Source: a virus (Duplodnaviria > Caudoviricetes). Taken from it: a stretch of DNA of 62,080 nucleotides. A model generated the notes under the pieces. It was not told where the DNA came from. It saw only the letters and a list, made by a program, of their open reading frames with translations, and searched no databases. Position numbers and translations under genes: made by a program. Shown here piece by piece: positions 9,366 to 53,058 of the stretch. Position 1 is the first letter of the stretch, and every line of letters begins with the position of its first letter. The DNA lies in IMG/VR virus record IMGVR_UViG_3300031963_000147, positions 1-62,080 of that record; one strand, given 5' to 3'.

Positions 9366-9373
9366 CAAATTTA
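9366..9373 (-). promoter_or_regulatory. Bacteroidota -7 promoter element upstream of the lysis genes
   Basis: TAAATTTG on the - strand (TAnnTTTG), 19 nt before the holin ATG. Confidence 0.55.
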
Positions 9374-18300: not shown

Positions 18301-21300
18301 GCAATGAAGCGCGTTCAATCGGACTGTTTTTAATCAGAGAATTCGGATATAGATACTTGGACACAAGTGCGCTGACTACATCCATGTCAACCCCAGTAAT
18401 ACGGCTGTTGCTCATGGTTGTTTTAGGCATTCCGCCAATAAAGCGACCACTTCCAACAGAGCCCTCCAATATCCGTCCTCCGGTGAATCCAGCAGCGGTC
18501 ACTCCCTCCCACATTGCCCGGATAATCGGCAAAGAGGTGTAGTACGCACTTCGGGTAGAGGACTTGGCTGTTGCCAGTGGGTTTGTCTTGGTCTTTTTGC
18601 CGATTGAATCCAGAAGCGATATGATCCTGCGGGATTCATCATAAAACTGAAGACTTGATTTATTCCACCTTTCACGATCATCATCCAGAAGTATTTCCGA
18701 AAGCGGACCTAATCCATTGTACTTGGAAAGTGCCTCCTTTTGTTCGTCTGTGGCAAACTGATCTGGATTGTCTAGCAGTGAATCAATTATTTCCAATGCA
18801 GCAATATTGTCTTCATACGCCTGCTTTTTGGAGAACGTTTTGTTCGCTGTCCTTTCCCAGTTTTCCGGATAGACAAAGTTCTGCTGAATGTCGGGGTCTA
18901 GTCTGTCAGGCTGAACAAGCTCTGTATTGCCTGTGCCTGCGCCTCCTGTTCCTGCATTGTCGGCAGGTACATCTCCAGGTATTGTTGATAGAGATCCACC
19001 ATTATTTTCATTCGCTTTTCCGCCTCCTGTGGTGCTACCTCGTTCACCTCCTTGCGTTCCTGCTCCGGCATTGATTCCAGTATCAGAGCCACCGGCCCCT
19101 CTACCGTCTTGATTAATTGTTTCTCCAGACTGGTCATTTTGTTCGGCATTAAATTCATATTCATCCACGACGGATTCTGAATCCATCTGTTTTTTCTGCT
19201 CTGGTGTTGCCCCCGTCATTTTGAATGACATATAGGCCGCTTTCATTGCGGGAATAATAGCTTCTCCCATCCTGGCAACAGCGTCTTCAGCTACCTCTGC
19301 AAATGTCAGTATTCCAAGTTCTGCGTATTTGGCAATGATTCTTACGGCTATTTCAAGCTGCTTGGGATTCAGACCTGCGTTGAGGTTGCCCATTTCATTT
19401 CCGAGCTCTCCCCATAAATCATCAAGGTCTTTGTTCTTGATCTTGCTGATTCGCTCTTGGCGCTTGGTTGGTTTCTCCGCCGGTTTTTCTTGTGGTTTTG
19501 GCATTTTGCCAATAACGACGTTTGGCGCGGGTATCCCTGATTGTTCAACGATGTCCTTAATCACTTCCTGCGGTGTCTTTTCGCCAGAAAGAAGATCCTG
19601 AACGTCTTTTACCTCTTGTGAAGGTGAATTTTTATTTATGTAGTCAACAACATACGGGATGGCCTCTTTAGCAAAAATGGTAGCAAGCTCTTTGGATGTT
19701 GGAGCAGGTGATTTTGGAGCTCCCCATCCATACGGCGCCCCCGTTCCTGATATGTTTATTCTCTGGTTCGGACCTACATACTGATCCCGACCCTTTTTTG
19801 TCCTGTCTTCTACTCGGTAGAAAATCTCACTGAGCGTGTAGTTGTCGTATGACCGGTTGTATTCTGGTTCATACTTAAATGCCGCATACAGGGTAAGAGG
19901 TGTGCCTGGAATAGAAAGTTCAACATACACATCACCACCTGCGGGAGCAATGTTTGCTCGAACTCCATTTTTACCAATTTCCCATCCGGTCATTTGGGCA
20001 ATATCCTTCATAAATGAAGTTATTTCCCGCTTGGCCTTTTTGCCAATTTCGTAGCTGGGTATCTCGTGGTCAATGTCGTCTGTTGTATAAACCTCGGTCA
20101 GCTTTTTGATCTTTTTGCCTACCGCGTTTATCTGCGCCTCTATTTTTTCGAGGGCTTCCCGAACTGTTTCTGGCGTTCTAGCAGCTCCTGCCTCTTTGAT
20201 TGCAGATTCTGCATCACTTTCGACAGTCTCGATAGATCGTTCGTCGATTGCTTCTGATTGTTCTTCATTGTCTTGGGTTTCTTGGGTTTCTTCCTCCCTG
20301 ATCGCTGATTTTACCCGACCATAGGTTTCATTGATAAGGTCTACTGCCTCGTCTCCGATAATCTTGCGGACACCTTTTTCGTTGTCGGCAATTTGTTCCT
20401 GAATTTCCTTTATCGCTGCGTCTGGATTCTCTTTGATTCCTTCTTTCCATGCAGTAGCCTGGATTGACTTCGATGGTGAATCAAGTACGAGCTGCGTGAT
20501 CTTGTCTTTGGGAGAAGCGTTTTTGGATTCTTTGCCGGCATTTAGCGCATTCTGAATATTTGCATTTAATTCATCCAAATGATCGGCAAGCGGAGCAAGT
20601 GCCTTTGGTGATTGGCTTTGTGGGGCCGTAGTCAGTGCTTCTGGCGCATACTTTTTAACGTATTCAGTATATACGCCTTCTACAATACGAGCGATTTTTT
20701 GAGCATCGCTTTTTGATGCATTCGCAGGCAGTATGATTCCAACACCAGCGGCAGTAGTTCTGCCTGCTGTTTTGCCCATGATACCAACATGAATTTCCTT
20801 TCTTCCGTCTGCGTACTGATGAATTCGTTCTTTCACAAACACTCCTGCAGTACCGATTTTGTCCCTTTCTCCACCGCGAGCGTCTACTTCAAGCCCAACG
20901 TCGTTGAAATGCAGTTTAGAATCGTTTACATACGGAACAATTTTAACGTCCTTCGTGTTTATGGGCGCTGGATTTTTATTGCCGCTTTCAATCTGTGCTG
21001 CAGGAACCTCTTCTGCCTGTGCTTCTTCTCCTTGGAATTCTTTTTCACCGGCGTTTGCTACGTCAGAAGTAAGAGCGTCACCAATGGCTCCTTCAAGCCT
21101 GGAAGCAAGGTCAATGAATTGCTGAACAAGCGGATTAATGTTGTCCGGAATGTCTTCTTTGTCAACGATGTTTCCTTTTGAATCAACCAAGTTGAATTCT
21201 TCTCCACTCATATCAACTTCGAACTTGTATCCCAGATTGGAAAGTTCATTGTTGATCTCTGCAAGTCTTCTGCCTATTGGCGATGCAGTTCGGAGAATGT

Positions 21301-24300
21301 CTTCGTTGGTGATCTCGTTGGTAGCAGGCGTAGACTTACCTTCTAAAGCAGCAAGCTCCGCGTCGTATTCGGCGTCGGTTGGTAAAACAACTTCAACATC
21401 AGATGTAAATATTTGCGGAAGCGCAGCATTAACATTGTATTCTCCGTTGGCTCTTTTTTCTGTTATTGCTATGCCTGACGTGTTTTCTTCCCATACGTCG
21501 TTTTCATTTAAAAACAACGGTATCAACTGGTAAGATTCTGTTCCCCTTTTCGTCGTTTTTTTTCTGACTATTAAGGCATCTCCATCCTCGTTTTTAAATA
21601 TTGTTCCTTCTGGTATGCTTTCTAAAAATTCAAATTTTTCTTGCGGCGTTGATTTTCTACTAATTATGTCTTTTCTTCTGCTTTCTATATCCGCCTTTTT
21701 ATCTGCCGTGTCGATTGAATCAACATTACCGGCAGACGTGTCGATTTTTTCGCCTGTTTTCGACGTGTCGGGTGTTTTATTCCCTTCAATCTCCCGTGCA
21801 ACAGCAGAAAACGGATTGAACACCGGCTGCGCGATCATAGAAGGTCCCTGCGGATTCACCGGAGCTTTCCCCTCTTCTACTTCTTCGATCTCGGGAATAT
21901 ATCCTTCCTGAACTTGCTGAATGATCTTTGCCTTTTCTTCGTCGCTTTCTACGCTCTCTACCGGGGTATTCATCAATGCTTCTACATCCGGCTTCTCTTC
22001 CGTATTCTCTGAATCAGTTGCCTGCGGCTTAACCGCCGCTTTTGCAGCCTTTCTCTTCTCGAAAAAGCCCTTGATTCCTTCATTCAGATGATTCAGCATA
22101 GTAGCCGCACCCTTGCCAAATGCGGCAATACGAACCCTTTTTGTAGCTACCTGAGCAACTAAATCAGGATTGGTAAATACTTGCTCAGCATCCGCCGTTG
22201 AAAACAGATACTCGCTTCCGTCCGCATACTTGATTGAGAAGAATTCAGGATCCTTTCCATTAATGAAGTCTGCCGCCTGCTGCTGGTAGTCTTTTGCTTG
22301 TTCTTCGAAGACTTTTGCCAATACCGGATCGTCCGCGTACTGCGCTGCCTTAGCAAGTGCTTCATCTGCCCTGGATGAAATCCATGAATAAATCGAAGCA
22401 TCATTCGGGCTCAACTTCAGAGCTTTTGCCTTTTCCTGATATTTCTCAGCCTGAAGTACGTCGGCAATCATGCCGTCACGCTGCGCCTTGTCGATCTGTC
22501 CAGAAGTAAAAAGGTTGTCAATGGCGGCCTTTGTGAATTTAGACCCCTTATTGAATACTGTGTTGTAGACAAACTGGGTAGATTGGCCCTCAATCACATT
22601 GGAAAGAACGTCTTTGGATGCCTGTGCAGTAATGGCGTTTACCATTTCCTGCTTGTTACCGGTAGAATTTACCTGACCGGCCATCCCAAGAATAGCCACC
22701 GGAGCGATCGGCACAAACGTGTCCTGTGCCTGCTTGATAAAGTCACCGAAATTCATAGGACGCGTCCCAACCTTTCCGTCAGTCATGTCCACCATTTCCC
22801 ATGCGTTTCTGCCTTCGGAAATATTCTTCTCTGCGATGTTCTGCAGGGTTTCCTGAATCAATTCAGTTGAAAGTTCGATACCTCCGCCGACAAGCATACG
22901 TCCGCCAACGGTAGGAACCATTGAAAGACCTTTTGAAATAAACGGAAGACCCTCGAAGGCATACGCCCACATAATATCAAGCTGTGAATCAAAGCTCTTC
23001 TGCGCTGCTTCCTTGGCCTTGGCTACATTTCCGCCGGAGCGTTCAAATGCGTCGTTGTATGCGCGGCCAGCAATATCGGCGGATTCAGCAGTGAATCCAG
23101 CAACCGAAGCGGCAAGCATTTGAACCGAAGCGCCCATTCCAAGTCCGCCGGTTGTCATCGCTGCCGTTGTGCTTGCCAAAATGCTTGGCGTCATTCCTCC
23201 TCCAAGCTGTCCGGTCAGCGTCATCAGGTTTTTCAGATCAAAAAGGTCTGAAACTTTGTCGCTCTTCGGCGTGGCAACCATGTTCTTTTGAGCAAGGTAG
23301 TCACCGTACATTTCCAGTTCAGGAATATCCATGGAAGTAGCAAGTGCCTTCAGGCTTCCTCCAAATCCATTCATAAATGACCTTCCAAGCTGCGCGAATG
23401 GAGCCGTGAGAAGACCGGCTTCAAATGCCTGTCTTTCGGTGGCGTCCATAGATGCCATTCTCTCTTCCGCCGCCTGCTTGTAAGCATCCGAATACTTCTG
23501 TGAAAATTCAGCAGCCTTCTCTGGAGACACTTGGTATTCGGCAAGAAACTTCTCCTCGGCCTGCTTAATGCGTGCATCAGCCTGTTTTTTCAGGGCTTCT
23601 GCCGCTTGCTTGTATTGGTTCTGATACCGGGAATTGATCTCGTTCAGCTTTGTTGTGGCCTGATCGTATAGTGTCGAACTCGCTTTCTGAATTTCCGCGA
23701 TCTTGGCGTCACCTTCATTTTTGATCTGGTCAAATGTCGTTTTGTACTGATCCAACGGAATAGCACCGGCCTGAAATTGCTTGTTCAGCTCTTCCAGTCT
23801 GGCATTGTACTCCGCGTTCAGCGCATTTGCCTGTTGCTGCAGTTGCTCCTTTGCCTTTTTCTGTTGCTCAAATACTGGCAGTGCTTCTGATTCAGCCTGC
23901 TTCTGTATTTGATTAAAAAGAGCGCCGGTGGCGGCATCATATTTCAGCCTCTCCGCTTCGTCGGTAGTGAATTTCGCATCCATGTCGGCATTCACTTCTT
24001 TTTTGAACGCCTTTTCATACGGACTGAAAATTTCTTTTGCCCTCGGCTCGATCATCTTCATGTCTACCGTGGCGATCATGGTGTTGTAAAGCAACTTCTT
24101 GAAGCTGCTGTTTTCACCAAGCCCATACATGGCTGCCTGTCTGGTGGCGTATTCGTCCACAACCTCTGGATTCACAACGACGTGCCCGCTTTTGGACTTC
24201 ATGGTGAATTTGCCGACGTCGTTTCCGATCATGCTCTCAGCAAGTTCGTTGACAATAGGGCCCATCTTCTTTGTGTTGGATTCAGCCCATGTCTTTGCCG

Positions 24301-24907
24301 GCGTAACCAAACGATCAATCTCCTCGTTGGCCTTGCGGATCTGTTCTCTCTGCTCGTTTACGGTAGGCGCCCATGCTCCGGGAACACCGGCATAGGAAAT
24401 AAACCTTTCCACTTCCTTCTGGCCTTTTGCCTCGAAGTTTGTCTTCAGGCTCATAGCGTTACTAGCGCCTATCTGAGCATTTTCGTACTGGTTGGCAAGC
24501 GCCTTAATTTCAGCCTGCTTCTGCTGGTATTGCTGTTCGCTGAATTTCCCCAGTTCATTCCTTCCCTCGGCTTTGTTTCGCGCAACAATCTTGTCCGCAT
24601 GACTAGCAATTTCTTCTCCACTCGGAATAGAAGGCTTTTGCGGCGCGTTTGAACCTTGACCAGACCCCGCCGCGCTGCCTGGTTCCGCCCCCTTTAGCTT
24701 TTCGACAAATGATTCGGGGGTGTGCGTGAATTTGTCCCCGTAGGCGTCTTTCATTACGCCGTATATCTTCTTTTGATATTCCGGATCATTGCTGATCTTT
24801 TCATCAAATGATTCAGGTGTATGGGTGAATTTGTCTCCATACGCTTCTTTCATAATACCATAAAGTTTTTGGCTGTATGGCTGTCCGGTTTCTACCTTTT
24901 TTCCCAT
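9371..24907 (-). CDS. Giant polyvalent virion cargo protein with DarB-like N6-adenine methyltransferase + SF2/SNF2 helicase and an HExxH zincin-like domain
   Basis: 5,178 aa. MTase motif I ILEGSVGSGRF (~18460) and motif IV ISNIPF (~18270); helicase HQKDAV, VGAGKT (~16390), IDESQEF (~15890), SGTPISN, QRNGRGIRQGN (~14670); LFHEAAH (~13375). Follows the muzzle and cargo genes. Confidence 0.88.
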   Translation of the reverse strand: MGKKVETGQPYSQKLYGIMKEAYGDKFTHTPESFDEKISNDPEYQKKIYGVMKDAYGDKFTHTPESFVEKLKGAEPGSAAGSGQGSNAPQKPSIPSGEEIASHADKIVARNKAEGRNELGKFSEQQYQQKQAEIKALANQYENAQIGASNAMSLKTNFEAKGQKEVERFISYAGVPGAWAPTVNEQREQIRKANEEIDRLVTPAKTWAESNTKKMGPIVNELAESMIGNDVGKFTMKSKSGHVVVNPEVVDEYATRQAAMYGLGENSSFKKLLYNTMIATVDMKMIEPRAKEIFSPYEKAFKKEVNADMDAKFTTDEAERLKYDAATGALFNQIQKQAESEALPVFEQQKKAKEQLQQQANALNAEYNARLEELNKQFQAGAIPLDQYKTTFDQIKNEGDAKIAEIQKASSTLYDQATTKLNEINSRYQNQYKQAAEALKKQADARIKQAEEKFLAEYQVSPEKAAEFSQKYSDAYKQAAEERMASMDATERQAFEAGLLTAPFAQLGRSFMNGFGGSLKALATSMDIPELEMYGDYLAQKNMVATPKSDKVSDLFDLKNLMTLTGQLGGGMTPSILASTTAAMTTGGLGMGASVQMLAASVAGFTAESADIAGRAYNDAFERSGGNVAKAKEAAQKSFDSQLDIMWAYAFEGLPFISKGLSMVPTVGGRMLVGGGIELSTELIQETLQNIAEKNISEGRNAWEMVDMTDGKVGTRPMNFGDFIKQAQDTFVPIAPVAILGMAGQVNSTGNKQEMVNAITAQASKDVLSNVIEGQSTQFVYNTVFNKGSKFTKAAIDNLFTSGQIDKAQRDGMIADVLQAEKYQEKAKALKLSPNDASIYSWISSRADEALAKAAQYADDPVLAKVFEEQAKDYQQQAADFINGKDPEFFSIKYADGSEYLFSTADAEQVFTNPDLVAQVATKRVRIAAFGKGAATMLNHLNEGIKGFFEKRKAAKAAVKPQATDSENTEEKPDVEALMNTPVESVESDEEKAKIIQQVQEGYIPEIEEVEEGKAPVNPQGPSMIAQPVFNPFSAVAREIEGNKTPDTSKTGEKIDTSAGNVDSIDTADKKADIESRRKDIISRKSTPQEKFEFLESIPEGTIFKNEDGDALIVRKKTTKRGTESYQLIPLFLNENDVWEENTSGIAITEKRANGEYNVNAALPQIFTSDVEVVLPTDAEYDAELAALEGKSTPATNEITNEDILRTASPIGRRLAEINNELSNLGYKFEVDMSGEEFNLVDSKGNIVDKEDIPDNINPLVQQFIDLASRLEGAIGDALTSDVANAGEKEFQGEEAQAEEVPAAQIESGNKNPAPINTKDVKIVPYVNDSKLHFNDVGLEVDARGGERDKIGTAGVFVKERIHQYADGRKEIHVGIMGKTAGRTTAAGVGIILPANASKSDAQKIARIVEGVYTEYVKKYAPEALTTAPQSQSPKALAPLADHLDELNANIQNALNAGKESKNASPKDKITQLVLDSPSKSIQATAWKEGIKENPDAAIKEIQEQIADNEKGVRKIIGDEAVDLINETYGRVKSAIREEETQETQDNEEQSEAIDERSIETVESDAESAIKEAGAARTPETVREALEKIEAQINAVGKKIKKLTEVYTTDDIDHEIPSYEIGKKAKREITSFMKDIAQMTGWEIGKNGVRANIAPAGGDVYVELSIPGTPLTLYAAFKYEPEYNRSYDNYTLSEIFYRVEDRTKKGRDQYVGPNQRINISGTGAPYGWGAPKSPAPTSKELATIFAKEAIPYVVDYINKNSPSQEVKDVQDLLSGEKTPQEVIKDIVEQSGIPAPNVVIGKMPKPQEKPAEKPTKRQERISKIKNKDLDDLWGELGNEMGNLNAGLNPKQLEIAVRIIAKYAELGILTFAEVAEDAVARMGEAIIPAMKAAYMSFKMTGATPEQKKQMDSESVVDEYEFNAEQNDQSGETINQDGRGAGGSDTGINAGAGTQGGERGSTTGGGKANENNGGSLSTIPGDVPADNAGTGGAGTGNTELVQPDRLDPDIQQNFVYPENWERTANKTFSKKQAYEDNIAALEIIDSLLDNPDQFATDEQKEALSKYNGLGPLSEILLDDDRERWNKSSLQFYDESRRIISLLDSIGKKTKTNPLATAKSSTRSAYYTSLPIIRAMWEGVTAAGFTGGRILEGSVGSGRFIGGMPKTTMSNSRITGVDMDVVSALVSKYLYPNSLIKNSPIERASLPSNSFDLFISNIPFGKQDIYDPVLDKKGGLWKASQKKLHTYFFAKAIDVVRPGGYIAILTTANTLDTRENQSTRDLILQTCEFVGAVRLGEQAFNADAGTQVVTDIILLRKRQEPIGLPSGEDHPISKIVKELAPHNKPDRPKQFIEYNEYFAKNKENVFGEKYLAGGLYSEDRGYTLTGAPEPEQVAAKLQELASKMPIQPYKHKEKEVDEILQMTPDGRMVSGGVIKKGGKYFTVIDYDKLQGVHNVVEITRLPPDKDRQTLDDFINLKNLYFDILSKDRASEDASAQRVEILDLLNSFVKRVKVQNITSLLSGRSVISQIIQKDPDAFAVLGLIRPDGKFADVVYKSAGADRPAFERTNNPADAIAYSINAFGHVNVPFVREVMDLSSDEEAVKAMGDLVFETPDGSVIEASEYLSGNVREKLDQANEWRKISSKYDRNAEALSKVIPDPIPAEDITFTLGAGWIPVNYYQSFLDVVFGSGKVKVTYSKATDKYNIVSSVVGGEYEALGEHGTKKQVGDVIEAAFTKKIGPYFMTNSRDDSKTPLPVLEQSVRDKVEKLQDAFSQLVVTDPTFKKELAEIYNRVFNGTVIKEYSGSTLTFPGLQGIELRPHQKDAVMLLVQKMGGMVDHIVGAGKTLVLGSAAIKMKQMGLVNKPVICTMKSVIPGMYKELTQAYPGLKILAPKETDFSAANRQRFFSQVANNDWDLVIISHENLGTLTLPPDFEEKYIQNEIEELMDAIAEIKGNSSGERDMFSKKQLKALQEKIENMTTKLNKLQDKGEYATKINMGDMGLDMLFIDESQEFKNLAFHTGMRNVSGLGNPAGSNKAANLKMICRYLQYIHSGDKGVCFASGTPISNSLTELYNIFQFIRPSLLKKLGMNSIDQFINTFGIVSATMEKNVAGVIKSKTRLNKFVNVTELATMYTEVSDIRAVHNLQLPRPKIKGGKPEVVLIKQSESQRAITDAIYEASRTGSVGPLLAVGIDVPDSWEKSLGINLTTLGSKASIDPRMVFPKMPEDGGKIQVAADKVYQHYIDSQDIKGTQLIFSDLGVPKDKAAPIGKRVYDEMVERMGEESIAEYSGADAIWKLKDRAQIKEALVTVFEMSPSEAESVIFQAEDTESFSVYAEMKKKLVRMGIPENEIAFIHDAPTKAKKEELFLKVNNGEVRVLIGSTKKMGTGVNVQRRVVAMHHLDAQWRPSDMEQRNGRGIRQGNMNEEVAIYYYGTEETIDAYRFGLLAKKQAGIDSFRAGGRGVREMDFEDGESMTLSEIAAAISGDTRLLDIEKLGGQIRKFENRIESAKRANALRDERIKNEKSSLNSYNRWIDISKEVAEIAKSTINNEGDRKIIEITVDENGKEKQKEITVPNFPVFTATVSGKQFDTKSTEQSKEFYKEIANRIKSLLDRGSIEVVKIGEIGGIEIVTSAPSNDKGYRSLYLEYKGKTIKTIVRSGREFEWWTILRAISSLRENVLEDINYYERVKSGIEKNIAEYEAQPDLVADPKDIEGLKQAKEKRDAILKELEEEEKAREERERNQGQNANPEEDLDDAAAEYQKATGDVATITDEKLRAQIDKVVSALKNVDPGARVVIHNDAESYASALEAMGEDPANADTSAAYDPISGEIHLNVNKIGDTTLFHEAAHPIMAIMIEMNPELLDGLYSQIESDPTLSKFVAFGSRYADPNQQKKEAVIEFLAAVAAGKLDGYKNTPLWDKIKAFFNSLIKFFTGKDTFEINLDNVSELKTFAGKFAEAVRTGTPVANSYQKVVRGGAEYQLSPEEQMMDKVRAAVVGAYNTGYSREDIIRLINEEPTVKQVIESQGTIQDFIDAALTVGPDPVESTKEQPVSGSVDYDFNISGSGDVREASVAGRAMRGMAEDALKQSIEKMGFDQYHVRTAYEADIIAQDFIDSVGMATAFKEAVVSRLVPDDIGAIVIAKAMMNPDMLGDTKAVPDLLRILSERGTNAGRGVNIYKYIYENYDIGFDIEKKFSEYRTASGDSNIPELVEKKWREYEEEMNSLREEIKQLAADKERLDAEVAISIIKENIARETSGRKLPQKEREKISDRIRKAKLARPDVFNSASPAVIAWDTAVEIVATTFDTTQSLAQAVKKGIDYLQNTEWYKSLNPEKKTEAIQKFADYYQEEGVPEPYMTDEGNLVIPNSFLRSLVAEGYETIEDITEQVRLVVDEAFPDYKFSEREVRDAITGYGRTIEMASDDISKALRKAKNIGRIISGLEDVQTGLSPLRSGLQREPTDPDIRLKMKELREAMKDLPVDQEASERQLKTALDAIKTRLTNAIQDIEREIETGMRIEKSKRGVAYDQTVKDLKERLAELRKERDALFGEEMSQSRRINAAIRLLDYAIESTQKALDSNDLKFKSKEKVSTPEIEAKREVLKALQARLKEARKEAGVIEAQRLANAKKNTEKLIQEYERRLREKDYAPKKRTPLVEDTELARKRARLRELKDKVDQDILDASLRNFKNSEARWNAFNEAWNLPKTVRASLEFSPILIQGGPLTMKYALTQQGELLQAIKQLGIAAANESTIKRIQNMVKDLPWYTEAMVAGLELSEFGGDISKAEEGFVFGALGHKIYDVPVGGAAKAIFGERVGERVKELNPMKVTERGASAYLNYLRIREYERGRKMLLARGYTIQNNKREFENLAKVINTYTGRGAVPGSPKYKAALTKGLSYLLFSAKNWSSVIKQTTPIGFIYFLQKTDMESGRPKLSVAQRVALENWLATYGTSAAFVLLFRSLFGGDDDDDKDGVSVSLDPRSSDFAKIKVGDTRVDPWGGRSQMLTFQARMYTQEIVNQYGETVEMGEYNEETGRANTNWLRLTYKLFQGKLHPTAAAILEKGMAEKNKYGQMIDEYGNPVLLKDQLTELFVPMYIASVVENYQEQSTELASVFTLIGSVGVSTNTYGGYTDMLKKETLKLEGKYLYENGGEEVPEGVKNMLQKKAEIIVKKKMRDGERRRRAQ

Positions 24908-46633: not shown

Positions 46634-46892
46634 TCTCTTCTGTGATGATTCCAATCAGCCCCAATTCATCCTGAAACAGCAGAAAATCTGCTCCGTCGAT
46701 CTGAATTTCCTGTCCTGTTCCCGATGGAAACAGAACGCGGTCTCCTACCTTGTAGTCATTGACTTCCGGACCAACACTGTAAACGTGCCCCAGACTTGGA
46801 GCCTTTTTAGATCCGTCCGGAATGTCAATTCCTATTTCACTGAGTGTTGGCTGAGGTGTGACCAGCACTTTTTTTCCTTTTACCTGTATCAT
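46605..46892 (-). CDS. groES: Co-chaperonin GroES
   Basis: KVLV...GIDIPD......G.VYSVGP.V...KVGDRVLF....G.EI.IDG..FL...E..LIGII. Confidence 0.92.
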   Translation of the reverse strand: MIQVKGKKVLVTPQPTLSEIGIDIPDGSKKAPSLGHVYSVGPEVNDYKVGDRVLFPSGTGQEIQIDGADFLLFQDELGLIGIITEENGQEPVQKN

Positions 46893-48469
46893 TTTTGATC
46901 GTTGTTTACAATAAGGGTGTCTGTGATTAAGAAAAGCGCCGCTACCGATGCTGCATTCTGCAAAGCTACTCGAAGCACTTTTGCTGGGTCAATAATTCCC
47001 AGTGAAGTGAGGTCTGAAACAAACCTTTTGGAGCGCATGTCGTAACCTTCATTCATTGCTGAAGGAAAACGCGGCGTATCTATTCCTCCGTTTGAAGTAT
47101 TCTTCATGTACGGAACCGCAAGAGCATTGTACACGATGTTTCTTCCCATGGATTCATCCACAGACAAATTGTTTTCTGATTGAAGGCATTCACGAAGAAT
47201 GAAGAACGTTGAACCTCCGCCTGGAAGATACCCTTCTTCAAATGCCGCCCGTGTAGCATTGATCGCGTCGTCTACGCGGTCAATTTTTTCGTTCAGTTCA
47301 CTACTGGTCTGTCCGCCGACTTTGAGAACGGCTACCTTACCAGACAAACGGGAAACCCGGTTTCTCATTTGATGATGTGTAGGAGAATCCCCGTCAATTT
47401 CAGCCATTTGCCGGCGAATACCGTTGATTCTTTCATCAGGATTTCCAGCACCTTCAAAAAGAATGGTGTTTTTCTCAGAAACCGTGACCTTTTTGACAAA
47501 TCCAAGTTTCTTGATGTCCTTTTGCGCCCGTTCTCCGGAATCTTTTGAATAGAAGTGTGCACCGGTGTACGCGCAAATATCCATGGCGATTTCCTTTCTC
47601 AAACTACCGTATTCCGGAAGCATCACTACGGATGCACGGATCAATCCTTTCAGGTGGTTGCCCAGAACTGTTGCCAGGGCCTCTCCTTCCATTCCGGAAC
47701 AAAAGAAGATGATTGGCTTGGGCTGCACTTCTTTCTCAGCAGCTTCTTTGATAACCGGCGTCAGGATGGATTCAATGTCAACGAATGAGTTGATGATTGA
47801 ATCTGTGACAAAAACGTAACAGTTTTCGGCTTCAAACGTTTGCTTTTGCTCGTTGTTTACCAGTTGAAAATGGAACCATCCGGACCCTACTTTCATGCCG
47901 GAAACAATTTCGGTGTACGTTTTTGTCGTTTCAGACGGCTCGTAAGCGACTTCTCCGCCCTTACCAACCGACCAGAACGCCTTTCCGATCAATTCCCCAA
48001 GCTCCCGATCATTGTTTGCTGATATGGTGGCAATATCAATCAGTTGTTTTTCCGTTTCGATCTGCATAGATGATTCAGAAATAGCCTTCACCACACGATC
48101 AACCGCATCTTCAATTCCGGACTTGACAAATACCGGTGAAGCACCTTCAGAGATCATCTTAAATCCTTCTTCAATGATGGCGTGTGTCAGCACGCAAGCC
48201 GTTGTGGTTCCGTCTCCGGCCATGTTCACTGTTTTTACGGCTGCTTCTTTAATGATAAGCGCTCCTTGATTTTCCGCGTGGTCCGCAAGCTCGATATGAC
48301 GAGCAACAGTCACCCCGTCTTTTGTGTTTTTGGGAACGCCGGCAGGCATTTCTATTACCACGTTTCTTCCTGCAGCACCAAGCGTGCTACCAACGGCAGT
48401 GGCTACCGTTTTCATTCCGGAGAACAGCTTTTTTTTGGCTTCTACGGAGAACAATACTGTTTTGCTCAT
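46889..48469 (-). CDS. groEL: Chaperonin GroEL
   Basis: TLG..GRNV, TKDGVTVA, AGDGTTT, TISAN, KVGG....E...K.DRVDDA..AT.AA.EEG..PGGG, GIIDPAKV.R.ALQNA; no GGM tail. Confidence 0.97.
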   Translation of the reverse strand: MSKTVLFSVEAKKKLFSGMKTVATAVGSTLGAAGRNVVIEMPAGVPKNTKDGVTVARHIELADHAENQGALIIKEAAVKTVNMAGDGTTTACVLTHAIIEEGFKMISEGASPVFVKSGIEDAVDRVVKAISESSMQIETEKQLIDIATISANNDRELGELIGKAFWSVGKGGEVAYEPSETTKTYTEIVSGMKVGSGWFHFQLVNNEQKQTFEAENCYVFVTDSIINSFVDIESILTPVIKEAAEKEVQPKPIIFFCSGMEGEALATVLGNHLKGLIRASVVMLPEYGSLRKEIAMDICAYTGAHFYSKDSGERAQKDIKKLGFVKKVTVSEKNTILFEGAGNPDERINGIRRQMAEIDGDSPTHHQMRNRVSRLSGKVAVLKVGGQTSSELNEKIDRVDDAINATRAAFEEGYLPGGGSTFFILRECLQSENNLSVDESMGRNIVYNALAVPYMKNTSNGGIDTPRFPSAMNEGYDMRSKRFVSDLTSLGIIDPAKVLRVALQNAASVAALFLITDTLIVNNDQK

Positions 48470-48472
48470 AAT

Positions 48473-49423
48473 TTATCTGATGGTTTTTGATTTACTGAAT
48501 GAAACTGATTCCTCCTCGATGGACAAAAGAGCGTATTCCTTTTTGAAATAGTAATACTCAGTGTCCAGGGTCCTGATCGCGTCGGGTTCCAAAATTATTG
48601 GAGGAATGGCGGGATTTATCACAAGCCTTTCTCCTTTTACAAACCCGTCTGGCGTGCTGCAGGCAGACCGGTAAATGTCAATTCCATGCCTGCGGGCACG
48701 ATCATTTGGAGCCCAAAGCAGTTTTTTGATCTCGTTTTCTTCCTTGGTGCACACCATGTACCCGTTCAGTGGAACCAGACCAGAAGAAGTGTTTTTGCAG
48801 ATCAATTCTTTGTAAGGAATGGTCACATACATGTTTCCGTCTACATCGTAAAAAAATGAATCAAAAATGTAGCTTCCTTCCCGGATTGTGTTGATGACGT
48901 ATTCACTGAAAAACACCTGATCGCCTTTTTTTATGTCAACCCAAGTGGATTTATCGAAATAAGAAGACACGATCATGTCTTTCTCGTTGTATGCGGATCT
49001 TGGTGCTTTTACCACAATCCCTTGGCGAACGGTGACGCGTGCATTTCCTTCGGTAGAATTCAGTTTCCCGATATTCATCCCGTTTTTGGATACTTCTGCG
49101 GTGACGTATGGAATTTTTATCAATACCCACCCGTCGTGCATCAGCATGTGGGATGCTTTACTTGGGTTTCCGCGAAACATCTTGTAGCAAAAGCGCTCAG
49201 GAATAACCGCATGTCTTCCGTTGTCGATCAAATTGAGCGACCCAAGCAAAAACATGACGTGATCTCCATACATGCACTGGCAGTCTCTTCCGGACATCAC
49301 TACACGGCCAAAATGAGGTGTTTTTACCTTGTCTTGCGGAATATAAAGCCCTGATTCACCTATTTCCTGAGTAGGAGCAACTGCAATTACAAGAGAATCT
49401 CTGGATGGATTTACAAAACTCAT
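48473..49423 (-). CDS. Protein with up to three tandem GroES-like domains
   Basis: Three segments with GroES-like patterns: PSRDSLVI..ESGLYIP..GRVV..GDHVMF; HDGWVLI..NG..I..GIVV..IKKGDQVFF; PLNGYMVC..LLW.P..VKGERLVI. Confidence 0.65.
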   Translation of the reverse strand: MSFVNPSRDSLVIAVAPTQEIGESGLYIPQDKVKTPHFGRVVMSGRDCQCMYGDHVMFLLGSLNLIDNGRHAVIPERFCYKMFRGNPSKASHMLMHDGWVLIKIPYVTAEVSKNGMNIGKLNSTEGNARVTVRQGIVVKAPRSAYNEKDMIVSSYFDKSTWVDIKKGDQVFFSEYVINTIREGSYIFDSFFYDVDGNMYVTIPYKELICKNTSSGLVPLNGYMVCTKEENEIKKLLWAPNDRARRHGIDIYRSACSTPDGFVKGERLVINPAIPPIILEPDAIRTLDTEYYYFKKEYALLSIEEESVSFSKSKTIR

Positions 49424-49672: not shown

Positions 49673-49891
49673 ATGCTGTTCAATTTTAAATCAGAGCCGG
49701 TGACAAAAAAAGACGTGGCTTGTCCGTGTAGCGATTTTGTCGTTTCAATAGGTGCTTGTGCTTGCGCCAACATATCGGTAGAAAACCAGCAGCAAATGAG
49801 ATACAGGCACATGCTTTACAAGCCAAAATCAAATCTCGGAACCAAGCCAAAATCACTGGAACAAATTTTAAATCACGATAAACAGCCATGA
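49673..49891 (+). CDS. Hypothetical protein
   Basis: ATG 9 nt after the -7 box; ATGA overlap with the nuclease gene. Confidence 0.4.
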   Translation: MLFNFKSEPVTKKDVACPCSDFVVSIGACACANISVENQQQMRYRHMLYKPKSNLGTKPKSLEQILNHDKQP

Positions 49892-50646
49892 GCAGAACAA
49901 AACTTTTCTTTGACTTCGAATTTACCGGCCTTCACCAGAAAACTACACCTATATCTCTGGGCATCATGTCGGAACAGGGCCATTCGTTTTACGCTGAATT
50001 TTCCGATTATGATTCAGGGCAGTTAAATCAATGGATCATCGACAACGTAATGCCTCACTTGTCGGAAAAAGCAAAAATCAAATCAGGAAGTTTTGAAACA
50101 GTAGAAGTAAGCGACAAAAGTTTTGTTGTTTATGGAGACAAGATACGAATTGCCAACTGTTTAAACGGGTGGATTCAGCAATTTGAATCCGTTGAAATGT
50201 GGGGAGATTGCTTGGCCTATGACTGGGTATTGTTCTGCAATCTTTTTGGCGGAGCCCTTAACGTGCCACCAAACGTGTACTACATTCCTTTTGATTTGTG
50301 CACGCTTTTTCTGCAGAACGACATTGACCCTAATGTTGACCGGATTGAATGGGTTAAAAAACAATCTAGCTTCGGAAGTAATTTAGAAGGAAAAAAGCAC
50401 AACGCACTGTTTGACGCATCAATCATCGCTCAATGTGTAACAACAATACTACAAATAAAAGATCGCGTAGATCACTATCAGAACGAGATCCGGAAAATGA
50501 TGGATGTTATTGTTTACAACGGAGAAAACTATGCTGTTTTTGGCGGATTCATAAGCATGCGCATAAAAGATGGCAATAAGCCAACGGCAACAGTTTCTCG
50601 CGCAGCTCAAAACCAGTGCGTAAAAGAAATTTTGCCTGAAGGTTAG
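49888..50646 (+). CDS. DEDDh 3'-5' exonuclease (RNase AS/DUF5051-like)
   Basis: FFDFEFTGL (ExoI), AYDWV (ExoII), HNALFDA (ExoIII). Confidence 0.88.
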   Translation: MSRTKLFFDFEFTGLHQKTTPISLGIMSEQGHSFYAEFSDYDSGQLNQWIIDNVMPHLSEKAKIKSGSFETVEVSDKSFVVYGDKIRIANCLNGWIQQFESVEMWGDCLAYDWVLFCNLFGGALNVPPNVYYIPFDLCTLFLQNDIDPNVDRIEWVKKQSSFGSNLEGKKHNALFDASIIAQCVTTILQIKDRVDHYQNEIRKMMDVIVYNGENYAVFGGFISMRIKDGNKPTATVSRAAQNQCVKEILPEG

Positions 50647-50748
50647 CCTGCATGCGAACAATATTTTTCAAATATGAACGACGGCCTGAAAAACAAAATT
50701 TCAAACCACATTTTTCAATATCTCGAAACTTTTAAATCCTCAAATACA

Positions 50749-50997
50749 ATGCAAGACAACAACGCCACATCCAGAGCACTGACCTTTGGTGAAAAAGCAG
50801 CCGGAATCACTTTCAATCCCGGAAACAACCCCGAAGTAGACCACATCAAGCGAATGGTTGCTGATTTTATCGACCTCTGTAACGACGCCAGAGCAAATGC
50901 CACGGACCCTGAAAAGTCTAACTACTACTCCAAAGCCATCAACGAAATGGAGAAAGCTCAGATGCTTGCTGTGAAGGCCGCAACCTGGAGCCACTAA
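50749..50997 (+). CDS. Acb2/Tad1-like helical-hairpin protein (candidate nucleotide-signal sponge)
   Basis: 82 aa: T.GE...GI.FNP....V..IK...A..ID.C...S.A..E.E.A.M.AVKAATW, a two-helix hairpin pattern. Confidence 0.6.
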   Translation: MQDNNATSRALTFGEKAAGITFNPGNNPEVDHIKRMVADFIDLCNDARANATDPEKSNYYSKAINEMEKAQMLAVKAATWSH

Positions 50998-51075: not shown

Positions 51076-51348
51076 ATGAAAAAAGAAGGCTCAATCCAAA
51101 TTCACGACGCAAAGAAGTCAAAGAAAAACCCAAACGCCATGTACGAAGTAAAGTGTTTGGCCCCGAACAGCGAACCTCTTCAGGACGGAGAAACGGTCAA
51201 CGATGAAAAGGCCGTAAGAACTCACATCAAGTCTATGGCCGCCCTTTGGAAAACTCCGGACATCAGTCTGCTGAACATCATTGACTTCACCAAAGGTCAA
51301 AAGTTCTGCAAGCCAGGAGCAAGAAGAATTGCCAAACCAGCAAAATAA
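51076..51348 (+). CDS. YegP/DUF1508-like small protein
   Basis: YEVKCLAPNSEPLQDGE......AV...I.SM resembles the YegP repeat. Confidence 0.4.
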   Translation: MKKEGSIQIHDAKKSKKNPNAMYEVKCLAPNSEPLQDGETVNDEKAVRTHIKSMAALWKTPDISLLNIIDFTKGQKFCKPGARRIAKPAK

Positions 51349-51354
51349 CCGGCC

Positions 51355-51849
51355 ATGAACATATTCAAAAAGAAAAAGACCGAGGCAAACACAAAGCCGT
51401 TGGTCAAAAGGCTCATTCCAGAATTGGAAGGCTTAGGCAACATGTCCGCCGAAGAGCAAAGAAAAGTCTACCATCGTATCACAAACGATTTCCAGACCAT
51501 TCAAATACTCAACCGGCTCAACCGGCAAAAGGATGACTTCATGGGGCAAATAGCCAACCTGGAAAGGATCCTCAACCAAAAAGCCGGCTCAGAAGATGCG
51601 CTTCGGGCGGAAATTGAAGCCCTAAAAGCTGATCTCGACACCGAAAAAACTGTCAAAGCCGCAATTCAGTCAGAACACAGAGACTTGATTAAGTTCCTTG
51701 AAGAAAAAAACGGCGAGATACGAAGGCTTCAACGCTCTTGTGAAAGACTGAGCGAAACACCCAAAACCCAATCGCTCAGCGCAGAACTCAACGGAGCAAA
51801 AATCAAAATTGAGGTCCCCGCGCAAAACAATCAACCATCAATCTCTTAA
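51355..51849 (+). CDS. Coiled-coil protein
   Basis: 164 aa with a long heptad-rich central region. Confidence 0.65.
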   Translation: MNIFKKKKTEANTKPLVKRLIPELEGLGNMSAEEQRKVYHRITNDFQTIQILNRLNRQKDDFMGQIANLERILNQKAGSEDALRAEIEALKADLDTEKTVKAAIQSEHRDLIKFLEEKNGEIRRLQRSCERLSETPKTQSLSAELNGAKIKIEVPAQNNQPSIS

Positions 51850-51864
51850 TACCCAAGAATCAAA

Positions 51865-52524
51865 ATGACAGCAAGAGCCCCAGAACAAAGCGAAATAATC
51901 GCTCGAATCTGCCACCAAACCAACAAGGCATGGTGTGAAGCAAATGGAGATTTTACCCAAAAAGACTGGGAAAATGCCGAACAATGGCAACGAGACAGCG
52001 CCATTAAAGGCGTTGAATTCAGAATCCAAAACCCAGATTCCGGACCAGACGCTCAACACAACGCCTGGATGAAGGAAAAAACAGAACAGGGATGGATATT
52101 CGGAGAAACAAAAGACGCCGAAGCAAAAACTCACCCGTGCATTATCCCATACGAGCAGCTCCCCGAATTCCAAAGAAAAAAAGACGCCCTCTTCTGTGCC
52201 ATCGTAGACGCATTGAAATTTGAAATCAAAAGCCCCAAAAACAAAAACTTTGGAGAAGCACTCAAAGCTATTCAATCAGGAAAACGAATCGCCAGAGAAG
52301 GATGGAATGGAAAAGGAATGTTCGCCGTACTCTCTCCCGGAAAAAAGGACAACCCAAGTGAAAACTTCTGGAACGAGCACCTGAAAAAATATGCTCAGCT
52401 CACAGGAGGAACAATGACCGTCCGACCAGCATTTATGCTCAAAACAGCGCAGGAAGATGTCGCATATTGGACGCCATCAACAAGTGACATCCTCGCCGAA
52501 GACTGGATCATCCTGGAAGATTAA
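51865..52524 (+). CDS. RyR-domain + DUF2829 (Tad2-like) fusion protein
   Basis: N-terminal HNAWM.EK...GW.FG..KD...KTHPCI.PY..LP..Q..KD (RyR repeat); C-terminal NFGEAL....SGKRIAR.GWNGKGMF...W.PS..D.LAEDW (DUF2829/Tad2). Confidence 0.85.
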   Translation: MTARAPEQSEIIARICHQTNKAWCEANGDFTQKDWENAEQWQRDSAIKGVEFRIQNPDSGPDAQHNAWMKEKTEQGWIFGETKDAEAKTHPCIIPYEQLPEFQRKKDALFCAIVDALKFEIKSPKNKNFGEALKAIQSGKRIAREGWNGKGMFAVLSPGKKDNPSENFWNEHLKKYAQLTGGTMTVRPAFMLKTAQEDVAYWTPSTSDILAEDWIILED

Positions 52525-52568
52525 ACCCTACATTTGTTTCGGCTAATAAGTGCTCAAGCCAAAAAAAG

Positions 52569-52604
52569 AAGCCCCAACGATTTTAAAGTCAACGGGGCTT
52601 TTTT
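52569..52604 (+). terminator. Intrinsic terminator
   Basis: AAGCCCC-N18-GGGGCTTTTTT. Confidence 0.7.
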
Positions 52605-52650
52605 ACCTTTACACCCTCAATAACAACACAATAAATACCCAACAATCAAA

Positions 52651-53058
52651 ATGAAAATCCTCACCCACTCCCAAAAACTCAACGCCTTCCAACTCAATCC
52701 AGAATCACCATCTTACTTCTCCCTGGATCAAAACGGAAACTCCAACCTGTCCGCCGAAGCAACCCAAATCAAAAACCAAATCCTCAGAATCCACCCAACA
52801 GCTCAAATCAAATTCCTACCAATCGACAACGGCGGATCTATACTCATCGACAGCCAAAAACTCAACCCTACCGACTGGCTCGTCAAAACTTCAGAAAACA
52901 ACTGCTCTATCTTCTCTAACTCAGAAGTAAACGCCCTATTCACCATCGAAGACGCTCCTGAAGAAGACCAACAACAACCCACCCCTCAAATACCCCAGCC
53001 AAGTCAATCCTCAGAATCAGAAAACACTTCTCAACCCGAACCCGACCCAATCAACTAA
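52651..53058 (+). CDS. Hypothetical protein with acidic/proline-rich tail
   Basis: 135 aa, ATG after an A/C-rich leader; L.AFQ...L.P.DWLVK.......F....V..LF core; extremely G-poor coding strand. Confidence 0.6.
   Translation: MKILTHSQKLNAFQLNPESPSYFSLDQNGNSNLSAEATQIKNQILRIHPTAQIKFLPIDNGGSILIDSQKLNPTDWLVKTSENNCSIFSNSEVNALFTIEDAPEEDQQQPTPQIPQPSQSSESENTSQPEPDPIN

Follow-up and report, generated by a model that had tools for sequence, protein, structure and literature searches.

A phage protein joining a RyR/Repeat12 domain to a Tad2 domain is a predicted two-module counter-defence protein

Introduction

IMG/VR record IMGVR_UViG_3300031963_000147 (Duplodnaviria; Caudoviricetes) is a linear virus record of 62,080 bp with about 45% G+C and an estimated completeness of 61%; this whole stretch was analysed here and is called the window. 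A block of small genes on the same strand, which starts at position 49888, comes after a divergently oriented block of structural and packaging genes (terminase, GroEL). In the small-gene block lies the gene that is the subject of this report, whose 219-residue product joins an N-terminal RyR domain of the Repeat12 type to a C-terminal Tad2 (DUF2829) domain. The gene and its parts are as follows.

51865..52524, plus strand: coding sequence of the RyR-Tad2 fusion protein (ATG start, TAA stop, stop codon included; 219 residues)
51880..52224, plus strand: RyR/Repeat12-type domain, residues 6-120 (Pfam PF02026, alignment with gp68, AlphaFold2 (AF2) model, Foldseek)
52225..52245, plus strand: inter-domain linker, residues 121-127, IKSPKNK (no secondary structure and a dip in predicted local distance difference test (pLDDT) score in the model)
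52246..52518, plus strand: Tad2 (DUF2829) sponge-family domain, residues 128-218 (Pfam PF11195, matches to solved structures, Foldseek)

A RyR domain and a Tad2 domain in one polypeptide

A RyR domain fused to a Tad2/DUF2829 domain had been proposed in a sequence-only reading, and this proposal was borne out: both Pfam domains score above their cut-offs, with seven linker residues between them. All elements of the RyR signature (H65-N-A-W68, G76-W-I-F-G80, K83-D84, K88-T-H90-P-C-I-I-P-Y96 and L99-P100) and of the DUF2829 signature (F129-G-E-A-L133, G146-W-N-G-K-G-M-F153, W202-T-P-S205 and D208-I-L-A-E-D-W214) are present, and the AF2 model of the whole protein (mean pLDDT 86.2; predicted TM-score 0.55) has two well-folded domains. 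The identical 219-residue protein is recorded from 12 contigs in a collection of 5.8 billion proteins, which, together with 15 other clusters that carry both domains among the 120 listed hits, argues against a one-off assembly error. The antisense open reading frame (ORF) at 51838-52275 is a mere shadow of the conserved RyR coding strand.

In the RyR half, PF02026 matches residues 64-108 (E=1.3e-11; 45.1 bits against a gathering cut-off of 27.4, and 46.3 bits in the genome scan), and the AF2 model places four helices at residues 6-26, 40-55, 63-74 and 101-120 with pLDDT of about 90. Foldseek relates this half to the Bt-hRyR chimera 6uhi (E=1.3e-4) and to the RyR-like protein 6uag of B. thetaiotaomicron (E=1.2e-3), with TM-scores that are modest because the query model contains two domains. 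In a sequence search of the PDB, the same chimera of Bt and human RyR Repeat12 was found at E=1.6e-22 and a 139-residue 'RyR domain-containing protein' (35tm_A) at E=3.5e-11; Repeat12 of RyR1-3 and the B. thetaiotaomicron RyR-like protein are also matched among solved structures, while residues 1-63 searched alone gave only chance-level PDB rows (E 0.4-0.6). The PHROGs families that match each half are all of 'unknown function'.

In the Tad2 half, PF11195 covers residues 128-216 (E=5e-23; 81.9 bits against a gathering cut-off of 25), and residues 128-218 form an alpha/beta domain in the AF2 model. Solved structures are matched in the order ModTad2 (E 2.6e-21), SptTad2 (2.9e-16), Tad2 of SPO1 (8.5e-12) and AcrIIA7/HgmTad2 (about 3e-10), and the full search of solved structures returned the ModTad2 entries 9eib/8v3e at E of about 2e-20 to 3e-21. 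Foldseek gave TM-scores per target of 0.80-0.89 (8wjd, E 7e-9, 0.80; 9eib, 0.82; 8v3e, 0.89). With ModTad2 (8V3E/9EIB), SPO1 Tad2 (8SME-G), SptTad2 and HgmTad2/AcrIIA7 the window protein shares the DUF2829 fold, the GWNG and W-x-P-S-x-S/T-D motifs and a predicted tetramer. The characterised Tad2 proteins are all stand-alone and of about 85-105 residues, whereas the Tad2 half of the window protein is fused and falls in a separate clade, starred in our tree.

That clade comprises 22 rows, has a 7-residue insertion relative to ModTad2 and contains 19 stand-alone members in our sample; the window protein is its sole RyR-fused member. Seventeen stand-alone Tad2 proteins are 62-75% identical to the Tad2 half (75% for P0269), and the Tad2 halves of other fusions at most 48%. 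The RyR half is about 75-77% identical to stand-alone RyR proteins and, equally, to two fusions, such that both modules also occur as separate phage proteins (at up to 77% identity for RyR and up to 75% for Tad2). Because the closest Tad2 relatives are stand-alone and the other fusions are this distant, we suggest that the pairing in the window arose by an independent, so far unique, joining or by a domain swap. The same Tad2 subtype, at 61-63% identity, is also found joined to two other, unrelated N-terminal domains without Pfam assignment, in P0241 (193 residues) and at L003:5672-6229 (186 residues); the N-terminus of P0241 has a faint RyR-like HxxW...LSEEEK pattern, seen by eye only.

Ligand-pocket residues in the two halves

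Two phage proteins of the RyR family serve as references for the N-terminal half. RyDEP, gp78 of mycobacteriophage DyoEdafos, is a dimeric inverting glycosidase with the catalytic dyad H75/D117, W78 and H100 being placed on the adenine and the phosphates, respectively. Of eight further viral PF02026 homologues, six bind 2'/3' cyclic ADP-ribose (cADPR) and none cleaves it; two of the six are nanomolar sponges that are active in vivo (PMC13232231). RyR Tad, gp68 of Pectobacterium phage CB1, binds 1''-3' glycocyclic ADP-ribose (gcADPR) with a dissociation constant of 43 nM, and also 1''-2' gcADPR and cADPR; the C-terminal RyR domain suffices to inhibit type I Thoeris, and the other domain, inactive against Thoeris by itself, contributes to dimerisation (10.64898/2026.06.04.730250). 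Mutants in H129/W132, K147/H154 and K170/D171 of gp68 bind 1''-3' gcADPR about 100-fold more weakly, and W132A abolishes anti-Thoeris activity (10.64898/2026.06.04.730250).

Like RyR Tad (vB_PatP_CB1 gp68), the window protein has a Repeat12-like all-helical domain in a two-domain protein, at 43% identity to gp68 over the RyR half (BLASTP, 47/109, E 8e-33), and keeps the ligand residues: H129, W132, K147, H154, K170 and D171 of gp68 correspond to H65, W68, K83, H90, K106 and D107 (6/6 identical), and these six are invariant across 13 aligned RyR-Tad2 fusions. The two proteins differ in layout, the RyR domain of gp68 being C-terminal behind an N-terminal beta domain, whereas that of the window protein is N-terminal and its partner is Tad2. 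They also differ in setting: gp68 lies in an N4-like hotspot beside a primase, and we dropped the idea that the fusion gene sits in an N4-type anti-signalling hotspot, as the window genes scanned (PHROGs, Pfam) showed no N4-like markers.

RyDEP belongs to the same PF02026 family, although it is a single-domain enzyme encoded within a NARP1 operon and the window protein is fused to Tad2. The spacing of its H75/W78/H100/D117 (+3, +25, +42) equals that of H65/W68/H90/D107; this equivalence we infer from the spacing and from the coordinates of the 35tm_A match. In the alignment with 35tm_A, residues 31-116 of the query pair with 41-127, an offset of +10 as the RyDEP numbering predicts, and judging from this sequence match 35tm_A is probably the RyDEP of DyoEdafos. 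A tblastn search seeded with an Arthrobacter phage RyR protein yielded no mycobacteriophage among the 60 matches listed. As the His/Asp pair is common to enzyme and sponge members of the family, it does not tell which type the RyR half of the window protein is.

The Tad2 of SPO1 binds gcADPR between the protomers of a tetramer via W25, N26, W73, S76, T78 and D79. These align with W147, N148, W202, S205, S207 (T to S) and D208 of the window protein, and the water-coordinating D67 and H71 are replaced by Q196 and A200; across the 13 aligned fusions the Tad2 pocket residues vary little or not at all. Specificity in the Tad2 family differs by clade and includes 3'cADPR, His-ADPR, N7-cADPR, cUMP/cCMP and cGG/cGAMP, with cUMP/cCMP bound in a second pocket. 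Tad2_71 inhibits Thoeris types I, II and IV, and ModTad2 does not inhibit type I; the ModTad2 preprints name no residues that contact His-ADPR. The conserved pocket thus supports, by comparison of sequences, binding of some ADPR-type signal by the window protein, without saying which.

A predicted tetramer held together by the Tad2 half

A four-copy model of the window protein scored 0.83 (runs 0.85, 0.83 and 0.83), whereas the best of three controls scored 0.00; at least 88% of contacts are shared between runs, and the partner pLDDT is at least 80. Of 30 proteins solved as pairs, 20 reach the mark used for this complex score, as does 1 of 23 proteins solved as single chains; these counts apply just roughly here, where four copies and our own alignment were used. 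Every confident contact lies within residues 128-219, that is, in the Tad2 half. The model fits a Tad2-cored tetramer, and its pass may reflect memory, Tad2 tetramers being among the solved structures. Crystal structures of the phage RyR-domain family feature a back-to-back homodimer formed through helices alpha1 and alpha4.

Recurrence of RyR fusions

Of the 120 hits listed from the collection of 5.8 billion proteins, 16 have both Pfam domains, the window protein counted, and two further listed hits combine RyR with the Acb2/Tad1 hairpin domain; the sample of this survey is biased to relatives of the window protein. A representative library of 1.84 billion proteins gave 8,768 matching proteins at E<=1e-3, of which 215 reached E<=1e-30. 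Among the best 150 of these, Pfam assigns RyR to 149, Acb4 (PF13876) to 11, Tad2 to 6 and the Acb2/Tad1 hairpin to 5, Acb4-RyR fusions being about twice as frequent in this set as RyR+Tad2 fusions. Architectures in the same 150 representatives were assigned with our own hidden Markov models (HMMs); these are narrow, so that the counts obtained with them, here and in the IMG/VR loci below, are lower bounds.

Single RyR domain: 38/150
RyR with an unassigned extension of at least 56 residues: 88/150 (43 N-terminal, 42 C-terminal, 3 both; about 11 of the 88 are Acb4 by Pfam)
RyR-Acb2-like: 12/150
Tandem RyR-RyR: 6/150
RyR-Tad2: 3/150
Tad2-RyR: 2/150
X-Tad2: 1/150

Pfam confirms both orders, RyR-Tad2 and Tad2-RyR, and 20 RyR+Tad2 fusions in both orders were gathered in all. 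The linker region is of variable length in the 13 aligned fusions; compared with the window protein, inserts there reach about 25 residues. The middle part, of about 90 residues, of two three-part fusions (P0013, P0020) looked like DUF2829 by eye and was set aside, since Pfam does not assign it. Proteins with two tandem RyR domains (P0121, P0134, P0138, P0140, P0157 and P0213; 240-303 residues; mixed genome and metagenome library) recall the tandem that forms one Repeat12 unit of animal ryanodine receptors.

A scan of IMG/VR gave at least 555 RyR relatives, and gene neighbourhoods were taken from the best 80 loci. One of these (L007) has, as does the window, a RyR-Tad2 fusion downstream of an Acb2-like gene, and nine more have an Acb2-like gene in the fetched flank. 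RyR-Acb2-like fusions occur in three (L040, L061, L048) and also in L055, there under the Pfam cut-off, and one locus has an Acb4-RyR fusion (L076:5677-6333). Four loci of one lineage (L031-L034) have a RyR gene at 5983-6348 followed 44 nt later on the same strand by a stand-alone Tad2 gene at 6393-6716. The Tad2 of this pair branches within a starred clade of Tad2 domains fused to RyR, and the pair looks like an unfused or split state of RyR+Tad2.

On a tree of Tad2 domains (143 rows, IQ-TREE quick), the label 'RyR-fused' requires 10 changes, of which starred branches force 6 or more; shuffled labels needed 19.1 changes on average and none of 500 shuffles was as low as 10. A tree of RyR domains (FastTree, 270 rows) gave 15 changes, or 10 with at least 4 forced if only labelled rows are used; this tree is poorly resolved (9/267 branches starred) and provides a rough second count only.

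Among cultured phages, 14 records matched with at least 80% of the query covered at one place, and neither of the two representatives checked has a Tad2 domain. Aeromonas phage AS-sw, which has a RefSeq copy, encodes a 114-residue RyR-only protein, and the query span and identity of 11 other Pseudomonas records are the same as those of Pseudomonas phage vB_Pae_BR228a. The RyR protein of the latter (L088:1489-2358; 290 residues) has a C-terminal extension without assignment, and its annotation as 'alanyl-tRNA synthetase' is likely wrong.

Within the window itself, an ORF two genes upstream of the fusion gene belongs to a family that is repeatedly found fused to phage RyR domains or beside their genes.

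50674..50997, plus strand: 107-residue ORF with a marginal Acb2/Tad1-hairpin match (Pfam PF24729)

Its match to PF24729 (E=3.5e-6) reaches 27.5 bits against a cut-off of 27, and a profile built from 11 of its homologues reaches T4 Vs.4 (7uq2) at just E=0.031. A PDB sequence search with this ORF gave no match, and its AF2 model (pLDDT 82.4) found no Foldseek match at E<=1e-3, Vs.4 coming seventh at E=1.4. By our own HMM, its domain is the one fused to RyR in the 12/150 representatives listed above and lies near RyR genes in 10/80 IMG/VR loci.

Discussion

We propose that the fusion gene encodes a two-module counter-defence protein, predicted to act as a dual sponge that removes the alarm nucleotides made by Toll/interleukin-1 receptor (TIR) proteins of Thoeris systems; we put the probability of this reading at about 0.62. 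In the proposed mechanism, the N-terminal module, of the RyDEP/RyR Tad family, would offer one deep pocket per protomer to 2'cADPR and 3'cADPR, and the C-terminal Tad2 module would tetramerise the protein and thereby form inter-protomer pockets for ADPR-derived signals, with 3'cADPR, His-ADPR or N7-cADPR as candidates and possibly a cyclic nucleotide in a second pocket type. One tetramer would then hold four RyR pockets and two to four Tad2 pockets, and could mop up the signal before ThsA-type effectors switch on, such that Thoeris effectors would stay off. Characterised relatives of the two modules prefer different ligands, so that the fusion probably lets the phage evade more Thoeris types with a single gene, which we infer to be expressed early. 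By analogy with those relatives, we hypothesize that the halves are complementary, RyR taking up 2'/3'cADPR while Tad2 takes up His-ADPR, N7-cADPR or a cyclic nucleotide.

The Acb2/Tad1-hairpin-like gene upstream favours the dual-sponge reading as context, and the 20 fusions, their two orders, the 10 changes on the Tad2 tree and the RyR-Tad2 adjacency in L031-L034 argue for selection for the RyR+Tad2 architecture. The sequence-only reading had presented the RyR domain as a binder or degrader of ADPR-type or cyclic-nucleotide signals within a two-function protein directed against Thoeris and CBASS (cyclic oligonucleotide-based antiphage signalling system). Its ADPR part holds for the homologues RyDEP and RyR Tad, while its cyclic-nucleotide and anti-CBASS part found no support for the RyR domain; an anti-CBASS role of the Tad2 half is a hypothesis by analogy with other Tad2 clades, and we likewise treat the two-function status of the window protein as a hypothesis.

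Several observations weigh against the dual sponge. Two of the eight RyDEP homologues did not bind 2'/3'cADPR, so that conserved residues are no guarantee of binding. The 22-row Tad2 clade of the window protein holds no characterised member, and ModTad2, the closest solved relative at 47% identity, falls in another clade; as ModTad2 has the same pocket residues and does not inhibit type I Thoeris, these residues do not reveal ligand range. The Acb2 assignment of the neighbouring ORF is only marginal, the tetramer model has no confident RyR-RyR contact and says nothing either way on RyR dimers, and the record is only a fragment of a virus.

The protein might instead combine an enzyme with a sponge, the RyR half being a RyDEP-type inverting glycosidase that cuts the ribose-ribose bond of 2'/3'cADPR to give linear ADPR and the Tad2 half sequestering another signal or holding the same one for hand-over. 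The DyoEdafos dyad is indeed matched by H65/D107 at equal spacing, as are W78 and H100 by W68 and H90, but the sponge-type gp68 has the same residues (H129/D171), so that the match does not discriminate. Moreover, none of the eight homologues tested beside the DyoEdafos RyDEP cleaved the signals, and no NARP1-type NAD+ salvage genes were found beside the fusion gene among the listed neighbours scanned. We therefore consider the enzyme-plus-sponge combination unlikely, and judge the RyR half considerably more likely to be a non-catalytic sponge than a glycosidase. Alternatively, one half may bind the signal and the other mainly multimerise it, for instance a Tad2 core that raises the number and avidity of RyR pockets. 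Such a scaffold would be in line with the contribution of the inactive N-terminal domain of gp68 to dimerisation, with the confinement of confident tetramer contacts to the Tad2 half and with the 112/150 RyR representatives that carry more than a single RyR domain, their extras being mostly uncharacterised. However, the Tad2 pocket residues are kept in the window protein and in all 13 aligned fusions, which would be needless in a mere scaffold, and stand-alone proteins that share 62-75% identity with the Tad2 half exist, which indicates that this module functions on its own; a mainly scaffolding role for one half is in our view distinctly improbable.

A role outside signal interception would make the protein an AcrIIA7-like anti-CRISPR, or its RyR half a binder of ATP/ADP or NAD-derived metabolites in the service of phage metabolism. 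AcrIIA7 chains (9kzr, 8kbi) do match the Tad2 half at E of about 3e-10, and eukaryotic Repeat12 domains bind ATP analogues (6uhh, 9l90-series). Yet the preprint that introduced Tad2 makes the case that DUF2829 proteins act against Thoeris and not against CRISPR, AcrIIA7 has been solved with 1',2'-cADPR and cGG bound (title of entry 8kbk), and all phage RyR proteins so far tested and found active acted on cADPR isomers, all of which makes such a role highly improbable.

The RyR module as anti-Thoeris sponge or enzyme, Tad2, sponge-sponge fusions and discovery through 'guilt by fusion' are all known already. In Pasteurella phage Pm86, an Acb4-Tad2 fusion counters both type I Thoeris and type I CBASS, and the argument that a domain fused to a known sponge is itself a sponge led to Sequestin (10.1101/2025.07.12.664507); the Acb4-Sequestin fusion gp59 of Pseudomonas phage Ab09 acts similarly to Acb4-Tad2 (10.64898/2026.06.04.730250). 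Like Acb4-Tad2, Tad2-Sequestin and Acb4-Sequestin, the window protein places two independently occurring modules of signal-sponge families in one polypeptide, and unlike them it has a RyR/Repeat12 module as the fusion partner. The blocking of several signals by one gene has been shown experimentally for Acb4-Tad2 and Acb4-Sequestin. RyR fused to Tad2, Acb4 or an Acb2-like hairpin was not found in the literature searched, although supplementary tables of the two RyR preprints may already list RyR-Tad2 fusions: the words 'Tad2' and 'fused' are absent from the text of the RyDEP paper (PMC13232231), and the accessible part of the June 2026 RyR Tad preprint (10.64898/2026.06.04.730250) makes no mention of a RyR-Tad2 fusion. 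Only the RyR-Tad2 pairing is therefore new, and the conceptual advance is modest.

We speculate, and regard this wider picture as tentative and on balance doubtful, that the phage RyR/Repeat12 domain is a promiscuous hub for counter-defence fusions, of which the window protein would be a one-of-a-kind pairing with its Tad2 clade that could cover Thoeris types I, II, IV and VI. In that case, the uncharacterised extensions of RyR proteins could be examined through 'guilt by fusion', which would bring to light further families, of signal sponges or of other inhibitors, and the list of RyR partners (Tad2, Acb4, Acb2-like hairpin, gp5.9-like, tandem RyR and many unknowns) could be mined for counter-defence families as was done with Sequestin. 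The window protein would be a further natural case of several signal-interception modules packed into one small phage protein, with a bearing on predicting which defences a phage evades, for example in phage therapy, and on Thoeris diversity.

One IMG/VR locus (L053:5992-6486; 165 residues) has RyR joined to a RecBCD-inhibitor domain of the T7 gp5.9 type (PF25708, E 1.7e-13, above the cut-off), a counter-defence domain unrelated to nucleotide signalling; this fusion hints at RyR partners beyond signalling.

Other features of the window

Two further features flank the fusion gene.

51851..51867, plus strand: upstream motif ACCCAA[G/C]AATCAAAATG, a predicted element read directly from the sequence, which ends in the start codon of the fusion gene
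52565..52604, plus strand: terminator-like hairpin with a U run, 40 nt past the stop codon

The upstream motif ACCCAA[G/C]AATCAAAATG recurs exactly at 52637-52653, where it ends in the start codon of the next ORF, and has 3 matches where 0.14 would be expected by chance; upstream of the fusion gene, no sequence resembling a Shine-Dalgarno site is visible. The RNA fold of 52525-52650 (126 nt) has an energy of -22.5 kcal/mol (z = -3.3 against shuffles) and contains the hairpin at 52565..52604, which a simple scan for consensus terminators did not list. The window has no tRNA genes, and megablast of 12.5 kb of it against 50,697 phage records gave no match.

The block of small genes with the Acb2-like ORF and the fusion gene opens with a gene for a 252-residue DEDD-type 3'-5' exonuclease at 49888-50646 on the plus strand (Pfam Rv2179c-like, E 4e-10; phrog_2259 'RNase H', E 3e-49). 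Three small plus-strand ORFs flank the fusion gene, at 51076-51348, 51355-51849 and 52651-53058 (90, 164 and 135 residues). No Pfam or PHROGs family was found for them, the 164-residue one having a sub-threshold match to the coiled-coil-type CENP-F_leu_zip; by position only, the three are candidates for counter-defence genes.

Among the large genes of the window, PHROGs and Pfam identify only terminase, GroEL, DnaB and weak methylase and helicase matches. The GroEL-type chaperonin is encoded at 46889-48469 on the minus strand (phrog_5725, E 8e-121), and the adjoining ORF at 48473-49423, also on the minus strand, has a weakly GroES-like N-terminus (E 7e-5). A single ORF of 5,178 residues spans 9371-24907 on the minus strand, with a Helicase_C match above the cut-off (34.1 bits) and sub-threshold matches to SNF2, ResIII and Eco57I-methylase. 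It is reminiscent of the giant virion proteins, polyvalent or anti-restriction, that some phages encode, and IMG/VR locus L008 carries a piece that is 32% identical to it.

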